64,000 bases of DNA from Alphaproteobacteria bacterium (GTDB lineage: Bacteria; Pseudomonadota; Alphaproteobacteria; Rs-D84). The stretch is from the NCBI GenBank assembly GCA_017443235.1, contig JAFSOV010000016.1, positions 9,525-73,524 on the forward strand, in the 5' to 3' direction. The notes under the pieces were generated by a model. The model was not told where the DNA came from. It worked only from the letters and a program-made list of their open reading frames with translations, and searched no databases. Made by a program: the position numbers and the translations under genes. This document shows positions 2,574 through 47,693 of this stretch, piece after piece; within the stretch, counting starts at the first letter, position 1, and each line of letters opens with the position of its first letter.

Positions 2574-3392
2574 ATGTCTGTTTCCATAGATCAAGTATTT
2601 GTGAAACAATTTGAAGCGGATGTTCACCTTGCGTACCAACAGATGGGGACAAAACTGCGTTCAACGATTCGCAGCAAATCGGGCGTTGTCGGTGCATCCA
2701 CAACTTTTCAAAAAATTGGTAAAGGCACGGCCAGTACCAAATCACGTCACGGCATCGTTCCGGTAATGAACCTTAATCACACTCCGGTGGAATGCACATT
2801 GCAAGATTACTATGCCGGCGATTGGGTTGATGCATTGGATGAATTGAAAATCAATATCGATGAACGTCGTGTGGTTGCATCGGCCGGTGCATATGCGTTG
2901 GGTCGCAAAACCGATGAATTGATTGTGAATGCAATGAACAGTGCAACCGGATATGTTGGTGATTATTCAACCGGTCTTACCAAAACATTGATTTTAACCG
3001 CATTGGAAAAACTGAATGAAAATGATGTCCCAGATGATGGCCGCAGATTCGCAGTCGTTGGTGTAAAACAATGGAATGAATTGTTGGGTATCACAGAATT
3101 TTCTTCGGCGGATTATGTCGGTGAAAATATGCCGTTTATCAATGGATGTGAAACAAGAAAGTGGCTTGGTATCACATGGGTTATGTACAACGATTTGCCG
3201 GTTCCGGCCGCTACACATCGTGATTGCTTTATCTATCATGCGTCCAGTGTTGGTCATGCGTGCGGTCAAGAAGTCAAAACGGATATTACATGGCACGGTG
3301 AACGTGCCGCACATTTCATCAGCAACAGTATGTCCCAAGGGGCGGTGCTGATTGATAATGACGGTATTGTTCGTGTCAAGTGCGGTGAATAA
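2574..3392 (+). CDS. T7 gp10-like major capsid protein (short form, 272 aa)
   Basis: The FVKQFEADVHLAYQQ...RSKSG...TFQKIGKGTAS pattern parallels T7 gp10 LKVFGGEVLTAF...RSISSGKSAQFPVLGRTQAA. Its position between the scaffold and tubular protein A matches T7 synteny. Confidence 0.6.
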   Translation: MSVSIDQVFVKQFEADVHLAYQQMGTKLRSTIRSKSGVVGASTTFQKIGKGTASTKSRHGIVPVMNLNHTPVECTLQDYYAGDWVDALDELKINIDERRVVASAGAYALGRKTDELIVNAMNSATGYVGDYSTGLTKTLILTALEKLNENDVPDDGRRFAVVGVKQWNELLGITEFSSADYVGENMPFINGCETRKWLGITWVMYNDLPVPAATHRDCFIYHASSVGHACGQEVKTDITWHGERAAHFISNSMSQGAVLIDNDGIVRVKCGE

Positions 3393-3416: not shown

Positions 3417-3647
3417 ATGGCTTTTCAAAATAAAAATTTATCTGTGATTGCGTATGCCAATGGGTTCACACTGTGGCATTATGCCGCCAATGAAACATTG
3501 GCAACGATTACGGCAAGTGGCTACTTTAACGCGGTTAAAACGTTGATGAACACCGGCGATATGGTTTTAATCAATGCATCCGATAAAACGTCAATCAAAA
3601 AAATTGCGGTTGGCGACAGCGCGGTGACCACTGCGGCATTGGATTAA
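3417..3647 (+). CDS. small phage protein between capsid and tail tubular A
   Basis: GGGGTAAAAAATGG RBS. A 76-aa ORF in the operon context. Confidence 0.3.
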   Translation: MAFQNKNLSVIAYANGFTLWHYAANETLATITASGYFNAVKTLMNTGDMVLINASDKTSIKKIAVGDSAVTTAALD

Positions 3648-3713
3648 TACCTTGTTTGTTTGTATGTTGATAAAGGGGTCGATTTCGGCCCCTTGTATTT
3701 TTCTTGGGGGGAA

Positions 3714-4235
3714 ATGATGCTAACAAAAATAGATTTATGTTCAATGGCGTTGTTAAAATTGGGTGAAAACCCGATTCAATCTTTGTCGGACGATACAACG
3801 GCCGCAAAATTGGGACGTACATTGATTGATTTTGTAATAGATACTTTATTGGCGATGCACCCGTGGCGTTTCGCGTGTCATACATACACGGTTGTCAAAG
3901 ACGAAAATGGTGATTTGAATATACCGGCGGATGTTTTGCGTATTCTTAAAACAAATGCGCGTGTTGTTGATAATAAGATTATATCGGATTCGTCTGCGGT
4001 GGATGTTACGGCAATTCGGCGTGTTTCGCCCGATAGTTTTCCAAGTTATTTTTCATCGTTGGTGGCAACAAAACTGGCCGTGGAATTTTGTATTCCGTTG
4101 ACATCAGATCAAACCGTATTTCGGACATTGGTTGCATTATATGAAACAGAATTACAAACGGCGAAATTCATAGACAGTACAACTTCGATAAATCCTGCGA
4201 TAGAAAACTTTTCGTTGTTGGACAGTCGCTTTTAA
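3714..4235 (+). CDS. tail tubular protein A (T7 gp11-like)
   Basis: The N-terminus LCSMALLKLGENPIQSLSDD..AAKLGRTLIDFVIDTLLAMHPWRF parallels T7 gp11 [55 protein letters not shown] RBS. Confidence 0.6.
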   Translation: MMLTKIDLCSMALLKLGENPIQSLSDDTTAAKLGRTLIDFVIDTLLAMHPWRFACHTYTVVKDENGDLNIPADVLRILKTNARVVDNKIISDSSAVDVTAIRRVSPDSFPSYFSSLVATKLAVEFCIPLTSDQTVFRTLVALYETELQTAKFIDSTTSINPAIENFSLLDSRF

Positions 4236-23126: not shown

Positions 23127-23322
23127 ACAAAAAAGGTACGTTTTTTGTGGCCACCCATAAGGTTTTAAAAAATCAAGTAATTTCAATGCTCGAATTTTCG
23201 GGAAAAAAGCCTGGACAAAAACGTACGTTTATGTCCATCACTTTTTTTAGAAATTGCGATTCAGTAAAATCAATTACTTACAAAACGTGACCCCTGGTCA
23301 CAAAAAACGTACCTTTTTTATG
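23127..23322. repeat. palindrome-flanked non-coding repeat element, copy 1
   Basis: ACAAAAAAGGTACGTTTTTTGT at 23127 and its reverse complement at 23297, plus a central palindrome GGACAAAAACGTACGTTTATGTCC. The core TTTTTTTAGAAATTGCGATTCAGTAAAATCAA is shared with 36133-36175. Confidence 0.6.
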
Positions 23323-24369: not shown

Positions 24370-27300
24370 ATGCCAGAAAATAATGTTCGTGATAACAATG
24401 CCCGTCGTACGACCGATGATAACTTGATTGCGTTGGCCAAGAATATAGCACGCGCATATCGTGAAATTGGTATTTTGACTGAACGTGAATATAACGTGGT
24501 TCGGCGCACAAACAATCTTGATGCAATAAACGATATTATTGGCGATATTCCCAATATGGAATCGGAACAAAAATTGCAATTCTGCAAAAGCTTTGTCGCC
24601 GATGATACAGAAAACTTTAATGGCGCAACCCCGGCAATATTGGCATATGCGTATATGGCGACGCGTAATGAAAATACGCCGATGGCACGTGCATTGGCCG
24701 CGCGCATTGATGATATGTCCGCAGATTTTGCAAATTCCGGTGGTATGGTTTTGGAAACCGGAACAAAATGGCCGTTGGTTGATATTACGAACATTGCCGA
24801 TGTATACGAAGGTTTTTCTGATGCGTTAAATGCGCGTATTGCGGATTTAGATGCGGGGGCGGATGCCGAAAAAATTGCCCAGATGAAATCTAACCTGGCG
24901 CAAATGGAAACGGTGATTGCCGATTACGACCGTGCGTGGGGATTGGACAAAGTTCATGATACCGAAGCCCTGGAATATGGTAAACGTTGGGATAAATTGA
25001 ACGATGCGTTAAATCGTGCCGGATTGTTCGCGGCGACCAAGGATGCCGTAAAGAAATATAATTTTACAGATGAACACGGTGATGTTATTCCACAAATCTT
25101 GGAAAACGGTGAATTGGACCAAGAAGGTCGTGCGGCGGCGATTTTGGATTTGGCGCGCGGTGATATTGCGCGTCGCCGCATTAGTACCGCAAACAAAAAA
25201 CTTGATGCGAACGAAATTGAACAAGAATTAAACGATGAATTTTTGTTCAAATTGTACGAAACGGCAAATGCCGACAAAATCGTCAAAATGGCCCAAGAAA
25301 ATCCAGAGGTCTTTACAGACCAGCAAAGGCGGAATGATTTTGTTCGTGAAATGATGTCCCAAGGTGGCGATATTTCAAATACGGCGTACAATGCGGCGTT
25401 GGATTCGAATGCAAATGCCGTTGCCGGTTGGGCGCCGCGGTTAAAGGCAAAATTGGGCACGGCCGCAGACAATGTTGGTGGATTATGGAATAAGATTTTT
25501 AACAAGAATCACGATGTTGATAGATTAAACAATGTTCGCATTGCGCCCCAAACCATTGATAAACGTCAAAAACGCATTGAATTGTTCAAACGTGTGTTAA
25601 AGGGATTCGCCAGTGGTTTTGTCGCCAGTATGATTATTACAACAATCGCGACTGCGGCGGCGGCAACGGCCGGAATATCGATGGCGGCATCTATGGCGGC
25701 AATTGGGATTGTGACCGCGATTGGTATGGGCGTTGTCCAGGTTAATCGTTGGCGTCGTCGTCAACAAGATGCGGGTTTGCCAACCGATATTCACGCATTT
25801 TTGGCGGATAAACGTCTTGTTACATCGCTTGGTGTGTCGGCAATCGCCGTTGTTGCGATGTGCTTTGGTGCCGGCGGGATGGCGGATGCCGCAATGGCAT
25901 TGGGTTACGGCGCGTTGGCGGCGGGTGGCGCCAAGAACGCAATCGAATCATATCGTGATGCGCGTGATTCGCGTATGTCGGTTGCGGAATCTGTTGCGTG
26001 GGCAATCGCAAATGCGGGCGCGGTTGTTGCCGGTGGTTTAACGGGTCGATATACTGCAAACGCGGCAATAAATGCATACAATAATGCAAACCCAGAAAAC
26101 ACAATTTTCCAAAACCAGGAAACGCGAACAATTGAACATACGAATACTACAACCGAAACGCGGACTGAATATACCCAAGATGCATTGGATAACGCAGAAA
26201 AAATCGCACGTATGTGGTATCGTGATAACCCGGATATATTGCAACAACGTGTTGATGCAATAAATGCGTATAACGCGGAACACGGGACAAGCATTGATCC
26301 GTATCGTGCAATTATGATAAATGGCGATGCGGGCGGTCAAACATTTGATAATATGCGTCTGCATGTGAACAACAGTCATCTGGATGCAAATATCAATGAT
26401 GTGTACAGTCACGGTCACCATCGTGTCTTGACCGATGCATGGGGGCGCGCACATGGTTTTACCGGCGAAGAATTGAATGCGGCGGCACGTCTGTTTAATG
26501 CCGATGGTTCGGTTAACGCAAACGGTATGGATGTGGTGTCGCGTCTTGATGGCGTGGTAAGTGAAACCAACACGGTGGGTGCTGTCCCGGGACGCCCGGT
26601 TCAAACAGATGGTTATTTCAAACCAAATGACCCAGAGGGATGGACAACATATACCGATGGTCGTCCGGCAACGGTTGAAAATATATATGATACAACCGAA
26701 ACCACATATGAAAATCTAACAGATTATACGCGTGCGCGCGGTGACGGTATGGCGGCGTTTGGAAATTATAATCCGCGTGAACGCAAAACCACACTGCGTG
26801 ACCGTATCGGTGCGTTCTGGGATAAAATAAATCAAGACAAAAAAGAGAATCCGGTCATAGAACCCGTCTTGACCGATGAACCAAAGGACGAATCACGGGA
26901 TGATAATCCATTTATTCCTGTTGTATCGTTTGTTAACGATAAAGACAAAGATAAAGCAGAAACACCGGTCATAGAACCCGTCTTGACCGATGAACCCAAA
27001 GATGAAAAGGTCGATTTTGACGATGTGTTTCCTGGGCCGGGTGATGTGGTTGATACAGAAACGGTTTATACATTGGACCCGGAAAATACCCCGGTCATTG
27101 AACCTGTGATTGAAAACGTGGAACAACCGGTTGCCCCGGTGGCGGACGACAAAATATTGGCAATCACTCGGTCCCAGGCGAAATCTTGGCATGATTTACA
27201 TGCGCGTTTAGAAAAAAATCAAAAGAAATTAAGCAAGAGTCCACACGGTTCCAAGGCGGACAAACTGCACGCCGAAGAATCAAAATTGCAGTATCTTATC

Positions 27301-36103: not shown

Positions 36104-36220
36104 TTATGCGAACTGGTCAAAAAAAACGAACGTTTTTGTCCAGTGTTTTTTTAGAAAAAATTATTCAGTAAAATCAACAAATCTAAAACCCGCAAAATGG
36201 GGGGACAAAAACGTTCGTTT
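36104..36220. repeat. palindrome-flanked non-coding repeat element, copy 2 (next to tRNA-Arg)
   Basis: CTGGTCAAAAAAAACGAACGTTTTTGTCCAG, then TTTTTTTAGAAAAAATTATTCAGTAAAATCAA, then GGGACAAAAACGTTCGTTTTTTGT. The architecture matches 23211-23322. Confidence 0.6.
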
Positions 36221-36465
36221 TTTGTTATCATTATAAACATAAAACAACACCGTCAGGCACGACAAGAGAGTCGTCATCCCGCGGAAAAAAGCCGTCATCC
36301 CGTTGTAAAACGGGATCTGGTGGTTCACGACGAGACTGACAAGATCCCGGCCTGGACCACCCAAAAAATGCATTCGCATTTTTCGGGGCCCGGTGCGCCG
36401 GGATGACGAGAGAAAGGCGGTATGACGGTGGAGAGATTAACAAGCAAGCAAAAAGGAAGGGAAAT

Positions 36466-44552: not shown

Positions 44553-44948
44553 ATGAAAAAAAATGTAAAAAATTTAACTTTGTTGTCGCTGTTGGCGTTG
44601 ATGGGTTGTGCAAACAACAAAAATATTGTGACCGATGCAACAATGAAACGTGCGGTTTTGCGCGATGTTAAAACGGGTCGCGAACGTGTGTATGATGCAT
44701 CCAATGATGATGCGATGAAGATGGTTTTAATATGGTTGGCACCGGGCGATACGGTGACATTAAGGTCACACGATTATGCGCGTGGTACGTTCTTTACACC
44801 GGAAAATTCGCAACTGTTATACAATGATGCCGAATTGGCCCGCAGAAAAGATTTGTTCGAACGTGAAAAAATCAGACAAATGGTTAAAATTGAATTTGCA
44901 AAACAAGAAGAAATGAGACGCCAAATACGGAATAACAATCAAAAATAA
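44553..44948 (+). CDS. lipoprotein, hypothetical
   Basis: Lipobox LALMGCAN. Confidence 0.45.
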   Translation: MKKNVKNLTLLSLLALMGCANNKNIVTDATMKRAVLRDVKTGRERVYDASNDDAMKMVLIWLAPGDTVTLRSHDYARGTFFTPENSQLLYNDAELARRKDLFEREKIRQMVKIEFAKQEEMRRQIRNNNQK

Positions 44949-46597
44949 TGCTGCATACATCGGATTTTGATTTTGAATTGCCAACGGAATTGATAGCATC
45001 GCATCCATTGGAACGGCGCGATGCTTCGCGTATGTTGGTGGTCGTGCCAAATTCCCCTCTGACCAGAGGGGTGGTGGGTGAAACCCACCGGGGTGTCGCA
45101 CTAGAAGATAAACACATCCGGGATTTTTTGGATTACATTCAACCCGGCGATGTTGTTGTGTTTAATAATTCGCGTGTTATACCGGCGCGCTTTGATGCGG
45201 ATGGTCACGAAATCACGTTGCACACCGCGGTCGATGATAAAAATTGGTGGGGGCTGTGCAAGAAATTTAATAAAATACATATCGGCGACACATTGACTAT
45301 GTGTGACGGTACGACAATAACCGTTATGGATAAAGACGATGAAAGTGGCCTGTTGCTGCGCTTTAATTGTGACAATGTTTTTGATGTGTTGGGGCGGGTT
45401 GGAAAAATGCCGTTGCCACCATATATGAAACGCGAAGCCGAAATCGCGGACAGCGCACGTTATCAAACCGTCTATGCCGACCCGTTGGGGTCAATGGCGG
45501 CGCCAACCGCGGGTTTGCACTTTACCGATGAATTGATGCGCGAAATAGAATCGCGTGGCGCGAAAATTGTAAAGATAACTTTACATGTTGGTGCGGGCAC
45601 ATGGATGCCGGTCAAGACGGAAAATTTAAATGAACATAAAATGCACAGTGAATGGTGCTGTATCACGCCGGCCCAGGCGGAAATTATAAACAACGCCACG
45701 CGTGTAATCGCGGTCGGCACAACAACACTTCGCACCTTGGAATCCGCCGCCAAAGTTCCCCTCCCCGGAGGGGTGGCGGGTAGCACCCGCCGGGGAGGGG
45801 GTAAAAAGGATATTTGTATGAATTTGCCTGCAAACCACAAATTAAAATCTCGTGCGCGCGAATTACGCAAGGCCGGCAGTTTGCCCGAGGCATTATTGTG
45901 GAATGAAATAAAGGGCAAGCGCATATGCGGATTAGATTTTGATAGACAACATGTAATTGGTAACTATATCGTAGATTTCTTTTGTTCAGCCACAGGTTTC
46001 ATTATTGAAATTGATGATAAAACACACGAACTGAAAGGCGAATACGATGAGAAACGTGACGCATATCTTAAAAGTCTTGGGTTAACGATTATGCATATCC
46101 CGGCCTCGGATGTTTTGCAAAATCCTGCGGCGGTGGCCCATTGGATAGAAAATACTGTATCAAATACCCCCACCCCGTCGCCGTTCGGCGCCACCCCTCC
46201 GCCGGAGGGGAACTTGCCACATATGGAAAAAAATAAATTTTCAATCGCCTGTGGGTCATTGCAGACCGGGATGTGTGCGGAATTTGCAGAAACCAAAGTT
46301 CCCCTCCCCGGAGGGGTGGCGGGTGAAACCCGCCGGGGTGGGGCGCGTGTTGCACCGATTTGCCAAACCACCGATATTTTTATCACACCGGGATATAAAT
46401 TCCGTGCGGTTGATGTGTTGTTGACCAATTTTCACTTGCCAAAAAGTACACTGTTTATGTTGGTGTCGGCGTTTTCGGGGCTTAGTGAAATGAAGGCGGC
46501 GTACCGGCACGCCATCGCCGAAAAGTATCGTTTTTTCAGTTATGGCGATTGCTGTTTATTATTTAGAAAGGATTGCGAAAATGTCGTTAAAATTTAA
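44948..46597 (+). CDS. queA: S-adenosylmethionine:tRNA ribosyltransferase-isomerase QueA carrying in-frame insertions (549 aa against about 350)
   Basis: DFDFELP...VVFNNSRVIPAR...MAAPTAGLHFT...VIAVGTTTLRTLESAA | about 196 inserted aa | ICQTTDIFITPGYKFRAVDVLLTNFHLPKSTLFMLVSAF...KYRFFSYGD. Confidence 0.8.
   Translation: MLHTSDFDFELPTELIASHPLERRDASRMLVVVPNSPLTRGVVGETHRGVALEDKHIRDFLDYIQPGDVVVFNNSRVIPARFDADGHEITLHTAVDDKNWWGLCKKFNKIHIGDTLTMCDGTTITVMDKDDESGLLLRFNCDNVFDVLGRVGKMPLPPYMKREAEIADSARYQTVYADPLGSMAAPTAGLHFTDELMREIESRGAKIVKITLHVGAGTWMPVKTENLNEHKMHSEWCCITPAQAEIINNATRVIAVGTTTLRTLESAAKVPLPGGVAGSTRRGGGKKDICMNLPANHKLKSRARELRKAGSLPEALLWNEIKGKRICGLDFDRQHVIGNYIVDFFCSATGFIIEIDDKTHELKGEYDEKRDAYLKSLGLTIMHIPASDVLQNPAAVAHWIENTVSNTPTPSPFGATPPPEGNLPHMEKNKFSIACGSLQTGMCAEFAETKVPLPGGVAGETRRGGARVAPICQTTDIFITPGYKFRAVDVLLTNFHLPKSTLFMLVSAFSGLSEMKAAYRHAIAEKYRFFSYGDCCLLFRKDCENVVKI
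45054..45100. repeat. GC-rich palindromic element, diverged copy (in-frame in the queA N-terminal region)
   Basis: CCCCTCTGACCAGAGGGG TGGTGGGTGAAACCCACC GGGGTGTCGC encodes an extra SPLTRGVVGETHRGVA. Confidence 0.6.
45757..46342 (+). mobile_element. in-frame insertion in queA: a nested DUF559/Vsr-like endonuclease domain flanked by GC-rich palindromic elements
   Basis: Palindromic elements at 45757-45801 and 46300-46342 (CCCCTCCCCGGAGGGG TGGCGGGT-GAA/AGC-ACCCGCC GGGG...), with a partial copy at 46194-46210. An internal RBS AAAAAGGA and an ATG at 45818 start the DUF559-like sequence ARELRKAGSLPEALLWNEIKGKRICGLDFDRQHVIGNYIVDFFCSATGFIIEIDDKTHE...LGLTIMHIPASDV. Confidence 0.65.
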
Positions 46598-47693
46598 TTT
46601 GATTGCAACCGATGGAAATGCGCGGCGCGGATGCGTGGAGACCGCGCACGGAACATTTCAAACCCCAAGCTTTATGGCGGTTGGCACGGCGGCAACGGTC
46701 AAGGCACTTACCATGGACCAGGTTCGCGCGACCGGAACCGAAGTTATTTTGGGCAACACATATCATTTAATGATGCGCCCGGGCGGTGATTTGGTGGAAA
46801 GAATGGGCGGTCTGCACAAATTCGGTGGTTGGCACGGCCCGATTTTGACCGACAGTGGCGGGTTCCAGGTTATGTCGCTGTCTAATCTGGTCAAGATGAA
46901 AGAGCAGGGTGTAGAATTTACATCGCACATTGACGGCGGAATAAAACATTTCCTGCGCCCCGAAGATTCTGTGCATATTCAACATCAACTTGATTCAAAT
47001 ATCACAATGGTTTTGGATGAATGTTTACACCTGCCGACTACGCGGGAACGTGCGGAAAAAAATGTAGATATGGTGACGCGTTGGGCGGCGCGCAGTAAAA
47101 ACGCGTTCGTTGACCGACCGGGTTATGGAATTTTTGGCATTGTCCAAGGTGCAGATTTCCCAGACCTGCGCGAAAAATCTGCGCGGGAATTGACCGCAAT
47201 TGGTTTTGACGGATATGCGATTGGCGGCCTGGCCGTGGGTGAACCCCAGGAAGTCATGTTCAAAATGATTGAAACCGTTGCGCCAATGTTGCCAACCGAC
47301 AAACCGCGGTATTTAATGGGCGTTGGCACACCACTTGATATTTTGGGTGCGGTGGAACGCGGGGTTGATATGTTTGATTGTGTTATGCCAACACGCGCAG
47401 GCCGTACGGCAATGGCATTTACGCGCCATGGCACAATGAATATGCGCAACGCGAAATATCGTGATGACGCGTCTCCAATCGATGACAAATGTGGTTGTCC
47501 GGCGTGTAAACTTTCGCGCGCGTATTTGCATCACTTGATAAAGTGCAATGAAATTTTGGGCGCGACATTGTTGACACAACATAACCTTTGGTTCTATCAA
47601 GACCTGATGCGTGGCATCCGCGAAAGCATAGAGCAGGGGCGTTTCGCCGAATTTAAGGCGGAGTTTATAAAAAATTACACAGGGGAAAACTAA
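46581..47693 (+). CDS. tgt: queuine tRNA-ribosyltransferase
   Basis: ATDGNARRG...TPSFMAVGT... and a zinc site CGCPAC...H. It overlaps the queA end. Confidence 0.85.
   Translation: MSLKFNLIATDGNARRGCVETAHGTFQTPSFMAVGTAATVKALTMDQVRATGTEVILGNTYHLMMRPGGDLVERMGGLHKFGGWHGPILTDSGGFQVMSLSNLVKMKEQGVEFTSHIDGGIKHFLRPEDSVHIQHQLDSNITMVLDECLHLPTTRERAEKNVDMVTRWAARSKNAFVDRPGYGIFGIVQGADFPDLREKSARELTAIGFDGYAIGGLAVGEPQEVMFKMIETVAPMLPTDKPRYLMGVGTPLDILGAVERGVDMFDCVMPTRAGRTAMAFTRHGTMNMRNAKYRDDASPIDDKCGCPACKLSRAYLHHLIKCNEILGATLLTQHNLWFYQDLMRGIRESIEQGRFAEFKAEFIKNYTGEN

Follow-up and report, generated by a model that had tools for sequence, protein, structure and literature searches.

Rickettsia palindromic elements are repeats of about 100–150 bp, AT-richer than those described below and not known to have an associated enzyme gene, that lie in frame in open reading frames (ORFs) without disrupting them. 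Repetitive extragenic palindromic sequences (REPs), extragenic by definition, are dispersed as singletons, inverted pairs and clusters, and in REPtrons the gene for an enzyme, a REP-associated tyrosine transposase (RAYT) of the Y1 (IS200/IS605-like) type, lies between inverted copies. MITEs (miniature inverted-repeat transposable elements) and other small transposons have terminal inverted repeats and short derivatives consisting only of ends. Inteins with homing endonuclease domains are in-frame, nuclease-carrying insertions in housekeeping genes that show presence/absence polymorphism and reuse their insertion points. The Vsr-like homing endonucleases of the EDxHD type (I-Bth0305I; the 'fractured genes' family, PMC2677866, PMC3239194) are likewise housed in conserved genes, within group I introns or inteins or between the two parts of a split-intein gene, and show allele-to-allele spread with short co-converted flanks. 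A survey of PD-(D/E)XK nucleases places Vsr, DUF559 and the homing endonuclease I-Bth0305I in one clade (PMC3424549). Here we analyze a stretch of 64,000 nucleotides from an Alphaproteobacteria bacterium of the Rs-D84 lineage (GCA_017443235.1, contig JAFSOV010000016.1, positions 9,525 to 73,524; hereafter the window), in which the queA gene contains GC-rich double-hairpin repeats. Our data largely show that these repeats are the hairpin ends and leftover single copies of a small DUF559 cassette inserted in frame in queA.

The cassette resembles each of these systems in part. It shares with the Vsr-like homing endonucleases a nuclease fold and an invariant ExD..H..D motif, residence in a conserved gene and the same kind of evidence for spread, but it is translated through, it has conserved terminal inverted hairpins that those genes lack, and the window DUF559 has only 18–19% sequence similarity to I-Bth0305I. 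An Rfam scan of positions 44900–46650 at E ≤ 1 gave no known RNA family, introns included (the only matches, to mir-320 and a Brucella sRNA, were at chance level and far below gathering scores). Pfam detected Queuosine_synth, DUF559 and a weak MTES_1575 match and no Hint/intein domain, the frame is open, and the insert junctions (...ESAA/KVPLPGG and ...TRRGG/ARVAP) lack the intein nucleophile and HN residues. In the absence of an intein or intron, the insert is simply translated with its host, and since it has no splicing domain or junction nucleophiles, the host protein has to work while carrying the insert. This sets it apart from the inteins, whose in-frame position in a housekeeping gene, variable presence and reused sites it shares. 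The single copies in queA lie in frame without disruption as Rickettsia palindromic elements do; going by the general description of the latter, they are distinguished by a length of ~45–50 nt, a high GC content and their identity with the ends of a nuclease cassette, and the double-hairpin family is not confined to one genus. Like REPs and REPtrons, the elements are dispersed singly, as inverted pairs and in clusters, and an enzyme gene lies between inverted copies; this enzyme is a PD-(D/E)XK nuclease and not a Y1 transposase (Pfam found no Y1_Tnp domain in the window ORF, and a search of the genomes for RAYTs was not exhaustive), the elements are often intragenic and in frame, and their heads are AA(G/T)TT-CCCCTCC rather than the GTAG/CGTC of REP superfamilies (PMC3733652). 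Terminal inverted repeats and ends-only derivatives recall MITEs and small transposons, but we found neither a target-site duplication nor a DDE, serine or tyrosine transposase, and many of the derivatives are single ends.

A DUF559 cassette with hairpin ends in queA

A preliminary description of the window had noted a GC-rich, cloverleaf-like palindrome in three direct copies and a partial one, all inside one coding sequence. The exact core pattern GGYGGGTNNNACCCRCC matches at 45073–45089, 45775–45791 and 46318–46334 and nowhere else in the window, with 0.00 matches expected by chance (100 shuffles), and a repeat search recovers a 51-nt family at 45048–45098, 45750–45800 and 46293–46343 (copies 1, 2 and 3), in which copies 1 and 3 are 67 and 92% identical to copy 2. 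The three direct copies in one ORF are therefore confirmed; within that ORF (44948–46597) they share one element frame and encode the peptides SPLTRGVVGETHRGV, VPLPGGVAGSTRRGG and VPLPGGVAGETRRGG. A generic search for the architecture CCCCTC-loop-GAGGGG-TG-variable-GGGG also matches the minus strand at 46171–46210, and the supposed partial copy at 46194–46210 is thus indeed element sequence but not partial, being hairpin 1 of a complete inverted fourth copy (46165–46215) with the same architecture and a differing second hairpin, CGCCGAACGGCG. The elements are clear GC-rich outliers as had been described, although the genome was overstated as AT-rich, the window having ~44% GC. Folded as DNA, copy 1 forms two hairpins (−14.5 kcal/mol, z −2.8), and one long stem is also possible for copies 2 and 3 only. 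The cloverleaf reading was dropped because both the fold and the family comparison below give two adjacent hairpins followed by a G-rich tail.

The host ORF was identified as queA on several grounds. Its product matches Pfam PF02547 (1e-110) split over two stretches, scores 398.6 bits against the 324-bit cut-off of the NCBIfam QueA equivalog NF001140, and aligns to the solved QueA structures 1yy3 and 1vky at residues 7–268 and 474–538. Insert-free close relatives have QueA proteins of about 335–344 aa, as opposed to 549 aa here. Alignment to the pristine alleles L074 and L075 (L074 has 84% nucleotide identity to the window queA) resolves a clean gain of 45 nt, or 15 codons, at site 1, after RDASRMLVV, and a single large block at site 2, after RTLESAA. 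In the window, site 1 is occupied by copy 1 only, and the insertion of ~190 aa at site 2, in a surface loop of QueA, comprises copy 2, DUF559, the inverted copy, an 80-nt spacer and copy 3. A model of full-length QueA built with 45 close relatives was poor (pLDDT, the predicted local distance difference test, of 45), with the DUF559 part folding independently and the hairpin-encoded linkers at low confidence, so the insertion sites were placed from the gaps in the 1yy3/1vky alignment and from insert-free relatives instead. The ratio of nonsynonymous to synonymous substitution (dN/dS) in the QueA host core is 0.05–0.07, including between genomes carrying two cassettes, and the protein, with its score above the equivalog cut-off, is still under purifying selection despite the inserts.

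The features of the locus are listed in Table 1. The idea that the copies bracket DUF559 as terminal repeats of a mobile unit has stood up, but the true ends are an inverted pair and not direct copies 2 and 3. The left terminal inverted repeat consists of AAGTT, hairpin 1 (CCCCTCC-CC-GGAGGGG), TGG, hairpin 2 (CGGGT-AGC-ACCCG) and CCGGGGAGGGGGTA, and is followed by AAGGA-N7-ATG, possibly an internal start retained from a free-standing form of the unit. Copy 3, beginning 80 nt past the right terminus, makes a direct-repeat pair with the left terminus. An extra flanking copy of this kind is also present in the relatives P0002, P0003, L010, L013, L029, L033 and L026, and in the last five the type B units contain similar spacers that differ in length. 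If direct repeats of this sort recombined, a single element such as that at site 1 would remain. The flanks of the window site-1 solo and its hairpin-2 variant (GGTGGGTGAAACCCACC) are identical to the outer direct repeats of the full site-1 unit of L010 and L013, and the solo may be either a recombination remnant of a unit of this type or its landing pad.

Table 1. Features of the queA locus (positions in the window)
Feature	Position	Strand	Remarks
queA, tRNA preQ1(34) S-adenosylmethionine ribosyltransferase-isomerase	44948..46597	+	549 aa, open frame, interrupted in two loops
Solo double-hairpin element, queA site 1	45049..45098	+	Net +45 nt relative to pristine relatives
Left terminal inverted repeat of DUF559 unit, queA site 2	45753..45803	+	Architecture as left ends in L018, L023, L041, L042, L044
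Shine-Dalgarno-like AAGGA, 7 nt, in-frame ATG	45806..45820	+	Directly upstream of DUF559 domain; read from sequence
DUF559, predicted Vsr-like PD-(D/E)XK nuclease domain	45821..46153	+	QueA residues about 292–402
Right terminal inverted repeat, complete element	46165..46215	-	Hairpin 2 = CGCCGAACGGCG; fold and generic architecture match 46171–46210
80-nt spacer between right terminus and third direct copy	46216..46295	+	Translated in frame, LPHMEKNKFSIACGSLQTGMCAEFAET; no recognised homology
Extra direct copy adjoining QueA resumption	46296..46343	+	ARVAPICQTTDIF; 92% identical to copy 2

QueA residues 298–402 match the DUF559 family (PF04480) with an E-value of 4e-26 and 91.5 bits against a cut-off of 20.6 bits, and a sequence match to PDB 3hrl was obtained at 3e-15. 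An AlphaFold2 model of the insert had a pLDDT of 81.5, the hairpin-encoded tails being of low confidence, and a Foldseek search with this model gave template modeling (TM) scores of 0.82 for 3hrl, 0.70–0.73 for I-Bth0305I (3r3p, probability 1.0) and 0.51 for Vsr (1vsr). Across 57 homologs, no variation is seen at D74, E85, D87, H91, D98 and R101 (insert numbering). From fold and motif, the insert is predicted to be an active Vsr-like nuclease of the EDxHD-type PD-(D/E)XK group. Pairs of embedded DUF559 sequences have dN/dS values of 0.03–0.12 (Nei-Gojobori), similar to those of the QueA core. NCBIfam gave only a sub-threshold match of the insert to the Escherichia coli YcjD-type DUF559 model, and PADLOC gave no defence-system model for it. 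The 14 cassettes embedded in queA are without exception stop-free and in frame, with their ends read in different frames, and the solos found at queA sites 1, 2 and 3, in either orientation, have lengths divisible by 3 and contain no stop codon.

The element family and its traffic through queA

A scan with the exact core pattern, covering one genome per species, found 40 loci in ~13 metagenome-assembled genomes (MAGs), all Candidatus Enterousia or unnamed Alphaproteobacteria from rumen and gut, with several contigs per genome. The element, which the preliminary description had allowed might occur only here, is thus shared among relatives; 28 viral contigs have a shorter version of the terminus, and in distant phyla DUF559 is flanked by the same termini. 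Enterousia belongs to the order Rs-D84, with genomes of 0.75–1.0 Mb and a coding density of about 90% (PMC12306168). A single exact hairpin pattern served to pick the Enterousia loci that we fetched, none of which exceeds 8 kb. The fetched loci together contain 102 different element sequences of ~45–50 nt, with the layout AA(G/T)TT, hairpin 1, TG(G), hairpin 2 and GGGGTGG. Hairpin 1 has a fixed stem, CCCCTCC/GGAGGGG or CCCCTCT/AGAGGGG (a compensated seventh pair), and a free loop. Hairpin 2 has a varying stem, with more than 45 different versions that almost always still form a hairpin (mean perfect stem length 5.08, versus 3.00 in shuffled sequences), and its triloop, usually of the GNA type, is mostly GAA, GCA, GGA or AGC. 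GNA triloops are typical of very stable single-stranded DNA mini-hairpins. The ends of the cassette are mutually reverse-complementary in the window and in L018, L023, L041, L042, L044 and L072; the left end of L018, for instance, is AAGTTCCCCTCCTTTGGAGGGGTGG-CGGGTAGCACCCG-CCGGGGTGGTTAGA, and its right end, reverse-complemented, is GTTCCCCTCCGTTGGAGGGGTGG-CACGAAGTG-CCGGGGTGGTTAGA.

In the relatives the elements lie in both orientations relative to ORFs and in at least three reading frames, which suggests a constraint on the DNA itself and not on a peptide or a single RNA strand. The in-frame peptide emphasized in the preliminary description is accordingly a fact of the window but not a property of the element. 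Its confinement to a single coding sequence likewise holds for the window only: solo copies, which outnumber cassettes in the Enterousia loci, are also intergenic or in other genes. Where other copies do lie in coding sequence they leave the host frame open, without one fixed peptide frame. We also observed that a set of paralogous probable surface or secreted proteins of Enterousia (L005, L009, L019, L031, L035, L037 and L038, also L003 and L011) has an N-terminal element directly before the hydrophobic signal-peptide core, KFPSREGWRVAPAGVWFAALVAL; it may supply a charged n-region, or it may have spread by gene duplication.

All 14 occurrences of DUF559 in the fetched Enterousia loci are in queA, where the two sites are found in every state of occupancy. 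Site 1 is pristine or scarred, carries a solo (window, L032) or is full (L010, L013, L018, L023, L024, L025, L029), and site 2 is empty (L013, L029), carries a reversed solo (L023) or is full (window, L008, L018, L024, L025, L026, L033). Two cassettes each are present in L018, L024 and L025, whose QueA proteins reach 626–643 aa, and L032 has a solo at a third queA site. Site 1 of L033 was rejected as an empty site, being a scar on comparison with truly pristine alleles. Among the 120 closest QueA clusters (77–92% identical), DUF559 is present in 34, neither site holds an insert in 64, and solos or short scars (VVRSSNGGELL, for example) are seen in several; presence or absence of DUF559 varies among QueA proteins that are 85–92% identical. 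Comparison of filled, solo and empty sites gave no convincing target-site duplication, within a resolution limited by loop divergence, and no clear target consensus, the sole hint of one being a GGGGAAC present in some unoccupied sites at the point of contact with the right end.

The site-2 cassette is 99% identical among L008, L018, L024 and L025, whose queA cores are 87.7–93.5% identical. In the comparisons of L018 with L025 and of L024 with L025 it has 6 mismatches in 473 positions, versus 117–118 in ~851 for the rest of queA (Fisher p ≈ 5e-17). Along these alignments identity is 70–93% in the host, 97–100% over a stretch that begins 24 nt ahead of the left end and finishes 12 nt past the right end, and 70–80% thereafter. 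As read from the alignments, these data show one cassette to have been transferred recently between species, with sharp edges. Recurrence of the 99%-identical block in four MAGs, apparently from different assembly series and host animals, counts against a cross-assembly artefact. The site-1 cassettes follow host divergence, as in vertical inheritance. One cassette subtype occupies different sites in two genomes, site 1 in L029 and site 2 in L033 (90% identical), the L033 unit is a mosaic, and site 1 of L025 has an orphan left end beside a different cassette. In some relatives (among P0121–P0240) the same site-2 loop is occupied by a second DUF559 lineage (…FQFRRQ…EVDGSQH…) with its own flanking repeat, which appears from its sequence to be an independent invasion of the site. 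The repeat of this second lineage encodes the peptide NPALAAGSQSASxxDARCGGG, with flanks AINPALAAGSQSAS..ARCGGG, and has solo forms in other QueA relatives.

Free-standing and embedded units in other bacteria

Outside the Enterousia/Rs-D84 clade, a free-standing DUF559 gene flanked by the same ends is present in Desulfonatronum (L042), and L044, to which the window copy is most closely related (69% identity by tblastn), is also free-standing between such ends. A unit with the same ends lies inside an ORF for a DPPY DNA-methyltransferase (L041), and a metagenomic viral contig (L072) carries a full unit. Free-standing homologs from many phyla start with MR(D/N)T..YMxLP(F/Y)NP just past the left end, in the place corresponding to the internal ATG of the window copy, and finish with ...TPPxEGN inside the right end, and those with the same end-derived peptide tails include members of the Desulfobacterota, Betaproteobacteria and Firmicutes. 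By this comparison the Enterousia copies are the free-standing unit minus its start and stop codons, and the window copy retains the AAGGA-N7-ATG.

Several of these loci have further features. In Desulfonatronum three tandem right-end copies follow the DUF559 gene and one precedes it (2926–3050 and 2333–2358), an array resembling those of REPs and bacterial interspersed mosaic elements. The L044 unit (~3600–3960) is directly upstream of an RNase P RNA-like sequence, gaggaaagtccgg. In L041 (1–190) a TAA lies in frame with the host ORF, 33 nt upstream of the called start (ENMEVL, stop, VLQKSYFGKVKMIYIDPPY), and the host gene there could be a pseudogene, be subject to phase variation or contain a sequencing error.

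A profile search of 1.84 billion representative proteins retrieved 32,982 at E ≤ 1e-3 and 16,568 at E ≤ 1e-10. Of the best 150 representatives, 47 have a length of 300 aa or more and contain the unit internally, and their flanks show the same end-derived peptides. Each of the 10 long representatives that were scanned has a recognisable host family beside the internal DUF559, in several cases with the host domain split into two stretches; the hosts are fumarase C, a class-V aminotransferase (cysteine desulfurase-like), iPGM, a QueA of another lineage, HsdS (2), Type ISP (2), an Eco57I/N6 methyltransferase and an N6_N4 methyltransferase. Genes of restriction-modification systems are strikingly frequent hosts (P0250, P0258, P0260, P0287, P0308, P0323 and others), which could reflect target preference, tolerance, or a functional link like that of Vsr with Dcm.

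Plasmid collections contained only six distant matches, at ≤41% identity, and cultured phages none, so no vector has been identified. In published data, 'DUF559 domain-containing protein' is enriched 14-fold among predicted targets of programmed inversion (PMC9881135), as expected for a gene that lies between inverted repeats, and repeated transposase/DUF559 segments in Legionella behave as recombination hotspots (PMC12308824).

Proposed nuclease-driven homing and the competing explanations

We consider it probable that the cassette is a selfish element driven by its nuclease, which moves by gene conversion and is tolerated only where it lies in frame and is translated; its nuclease activity and target are predictions. 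The DUF559 nuclease would break DNA at or near an unoccupied site, either an empty allele or a solo or landing hairpin. Repair of the break by gene conversion from an occupied copy, as in homing, would then carry over the cassette with a few tens of bases of flank. The structured ends would be conserved cis-elements that supply portable homology and are probably recognized by the nuclease or the repair machinery. Recombination between directly repeated ends would delete the nuclease gene and leave solo hairpins or short in-frame scars. The survivors would be insertions in a tolerant loop that leave the host frame uninterrupted, with the nuclease made as part of the host protein and, in the window, perhaps also from the retained internal Shine-Dalgarno sequence and ATG. 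In-frame status would in that case be a survivor filter, by which the host enzyme is preserved and the nuclease is translated.

Several observations sit uneasily with homing by gene conversion. We know of no nuclease activity, cleavage site or recognition sequence for this DUF559 subfamily, and the comparison of filled, solo and empty sites revealed neither a target-site duplication nor a clear target consensus. The genes of classical homing endonucleases are not known to carry terminal inverted repeats, and each has a single target gene. The presence of very similar cassettes in many unrelated genes argues for an end-directed, transposon-like step. The restriction of DUF559 to queA in the fetched loci may be a sampling effect. 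Occupied sites keep intact hairpins and therefore would not be immune if the hairpin were the nuclease target. The near-identical block could in principle have come from ordinary recombination after DNA uptake or from metagenome cross-assembly of a repeat, and the arrival of solo hairpins at new sites is not accounted for by this mechanism.

Some of these points would be met by a true transposon, the main rival, in which DUF559 would work on the hairpin ends of its own unit, excising or copying the unit for host-assisted integration at new sites, while the solos and pairs would be MITE- or REP-like derivatives mobilized in trans. The conservation of ~45-nt terminal inverted repeats from Alphaproteobacteria to Desulfobacterota fits such an element, as do the insertions in many unrelated genes, the tandem arrays of ends beside the Desulfonatronum gene, the GNA triloops suited to stable single-stranded DNA hairpins, and hairpin pairs without DUF559 that we found 10–100 nt apart in L001, L020 and viral contigs. 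We nevertheless regard it as unlikely, because no target-site duplication was found between filled and pristine sites, a Vsr-like nuclease of ~110 aa has no known strand-transfer activity, many solos are single ends and not pairs, and same-site spread between species with co-converted flanks fits gene conversion better than de novo transposition.

Less likely still is that the palindromes are passive DNA, similar to REPs or Rickettsia palindromic elements and spread by an unrelated or host mechanism, which merely bracket DUF559 (for example as terminators or insulators) while it hitch-hikes by recombination. Solos do outnumber cassettes in the Enterousia loci and occur between genes and in other genes, and Rickettsia palindromic elements persist in frame without any encoded enzyme. 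Against this, DUF559 is accompanied by the same hairpin sequence in distant phyla, the embedded DUF559 is under strong purifying selection, and a sharp-edged, near-identical block running from end to end is unlikely to arise without a site-specific break.

The purifying selection on the insert would also be expected of a domesticated domain that benefits its host by adding a function to QueA or to restriction-modification proteins, such as nucleic-acid binding or a Vsr-like mismatch repair alongside methyltransferases. DNA methyltransferases and specificity subunits account for many of the hosts, and canonical Vsr itself acts together with a methyltransferase (PMC3424549). We judge this very improbable, since DUF559 comes and goes among QueA proteins 85–92% identical, occupies two sites in several cassette subtypes with scars and solos, has moved laterally between species, and resides also in hosts without a DNA function (fumarase, iPGM and a cysteine desulfurase-like protein). 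A new splicing route that restores a normal mature QueA, with the insert removed from RNA by cutting and re-ligation at its paired ends or from the protein by an unrecognised reaction, is equally improbable, for although the complementary ends would form a long helix joining the exon ends, the frame is open in every case and in different element frames, as splicing would not require, solo elements in either orientation are kept in frame too, and there is no Rfam intron or ribozyme match, Hint domain or nucleophile/HN residue at the junctions.

If homing by gene conversion is correct, DUF559, one of the large nuclease-like domains not yet assigned a function, would gain a concrete role as the engine of a selfish cassette. 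QueA proteins of 550–640 aa and the fumarase, iPGM and HsdS 'fusions' with DUF559 would then be annotated as host enzymes with a parasite and not as new multidomain enzymes. Besides introns and inteins, this would give mobile elements a third way of inhabiting essential genes, by staying in frame within a loop that tolerates them and being translated with the host. The occupied loops would mark permissive insertion sites in host enzymes, of use in protein engineering, and new DNA tools with sequence or structure specificity might be drawn from the nuclease and its structured ends. More tentatively, hairpin-DUF559-hairpin units may constitute an unrecognised pan-bacterial class of autonomous selfish elements, an intein-less homing cassette in coding genes, a proposal for which we would not yet claim the balance of probability; on this reading the large DUF559 family (the 32,982 representatives above) would gain its first biological role, and many of the 'fused' DUF559 architectures in housekeeping and restriction-modification proteins would be explained. 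A search of the full-text literature turned up no account in which DUF559 is a mobile cassette bounded by hairpins or lying in frame; two apparent mentions of DUF559 were discarded, as they refer to DUF5591 and DUF5590. The units are for the present best filed as a variant among the known kinds of selfish element, with a substantial chance that they are a new class.

Other repeats in the window were also recorded. The AT-rich palindrome AAAAACG(WW)CGTTTTT is present in five copies (0.01 expected) in two clusters at 23130–23318 and 36122–36222, with copies spaced ~85 nt from one another, and may be a second small family of repeats, operators or terminators unrelated to the GC-rich element. A 59-nt direct repeat (26834–26892 and 26948–27006) has copies 85% identical and 114 nt apart. 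At 2064–2317 there is a tandem repeat with periods of 15 and 45 nt and about 17 copies of the consensus CTGCTGCGAAAAAAC, which looks like a coding repeat of 5 aa.

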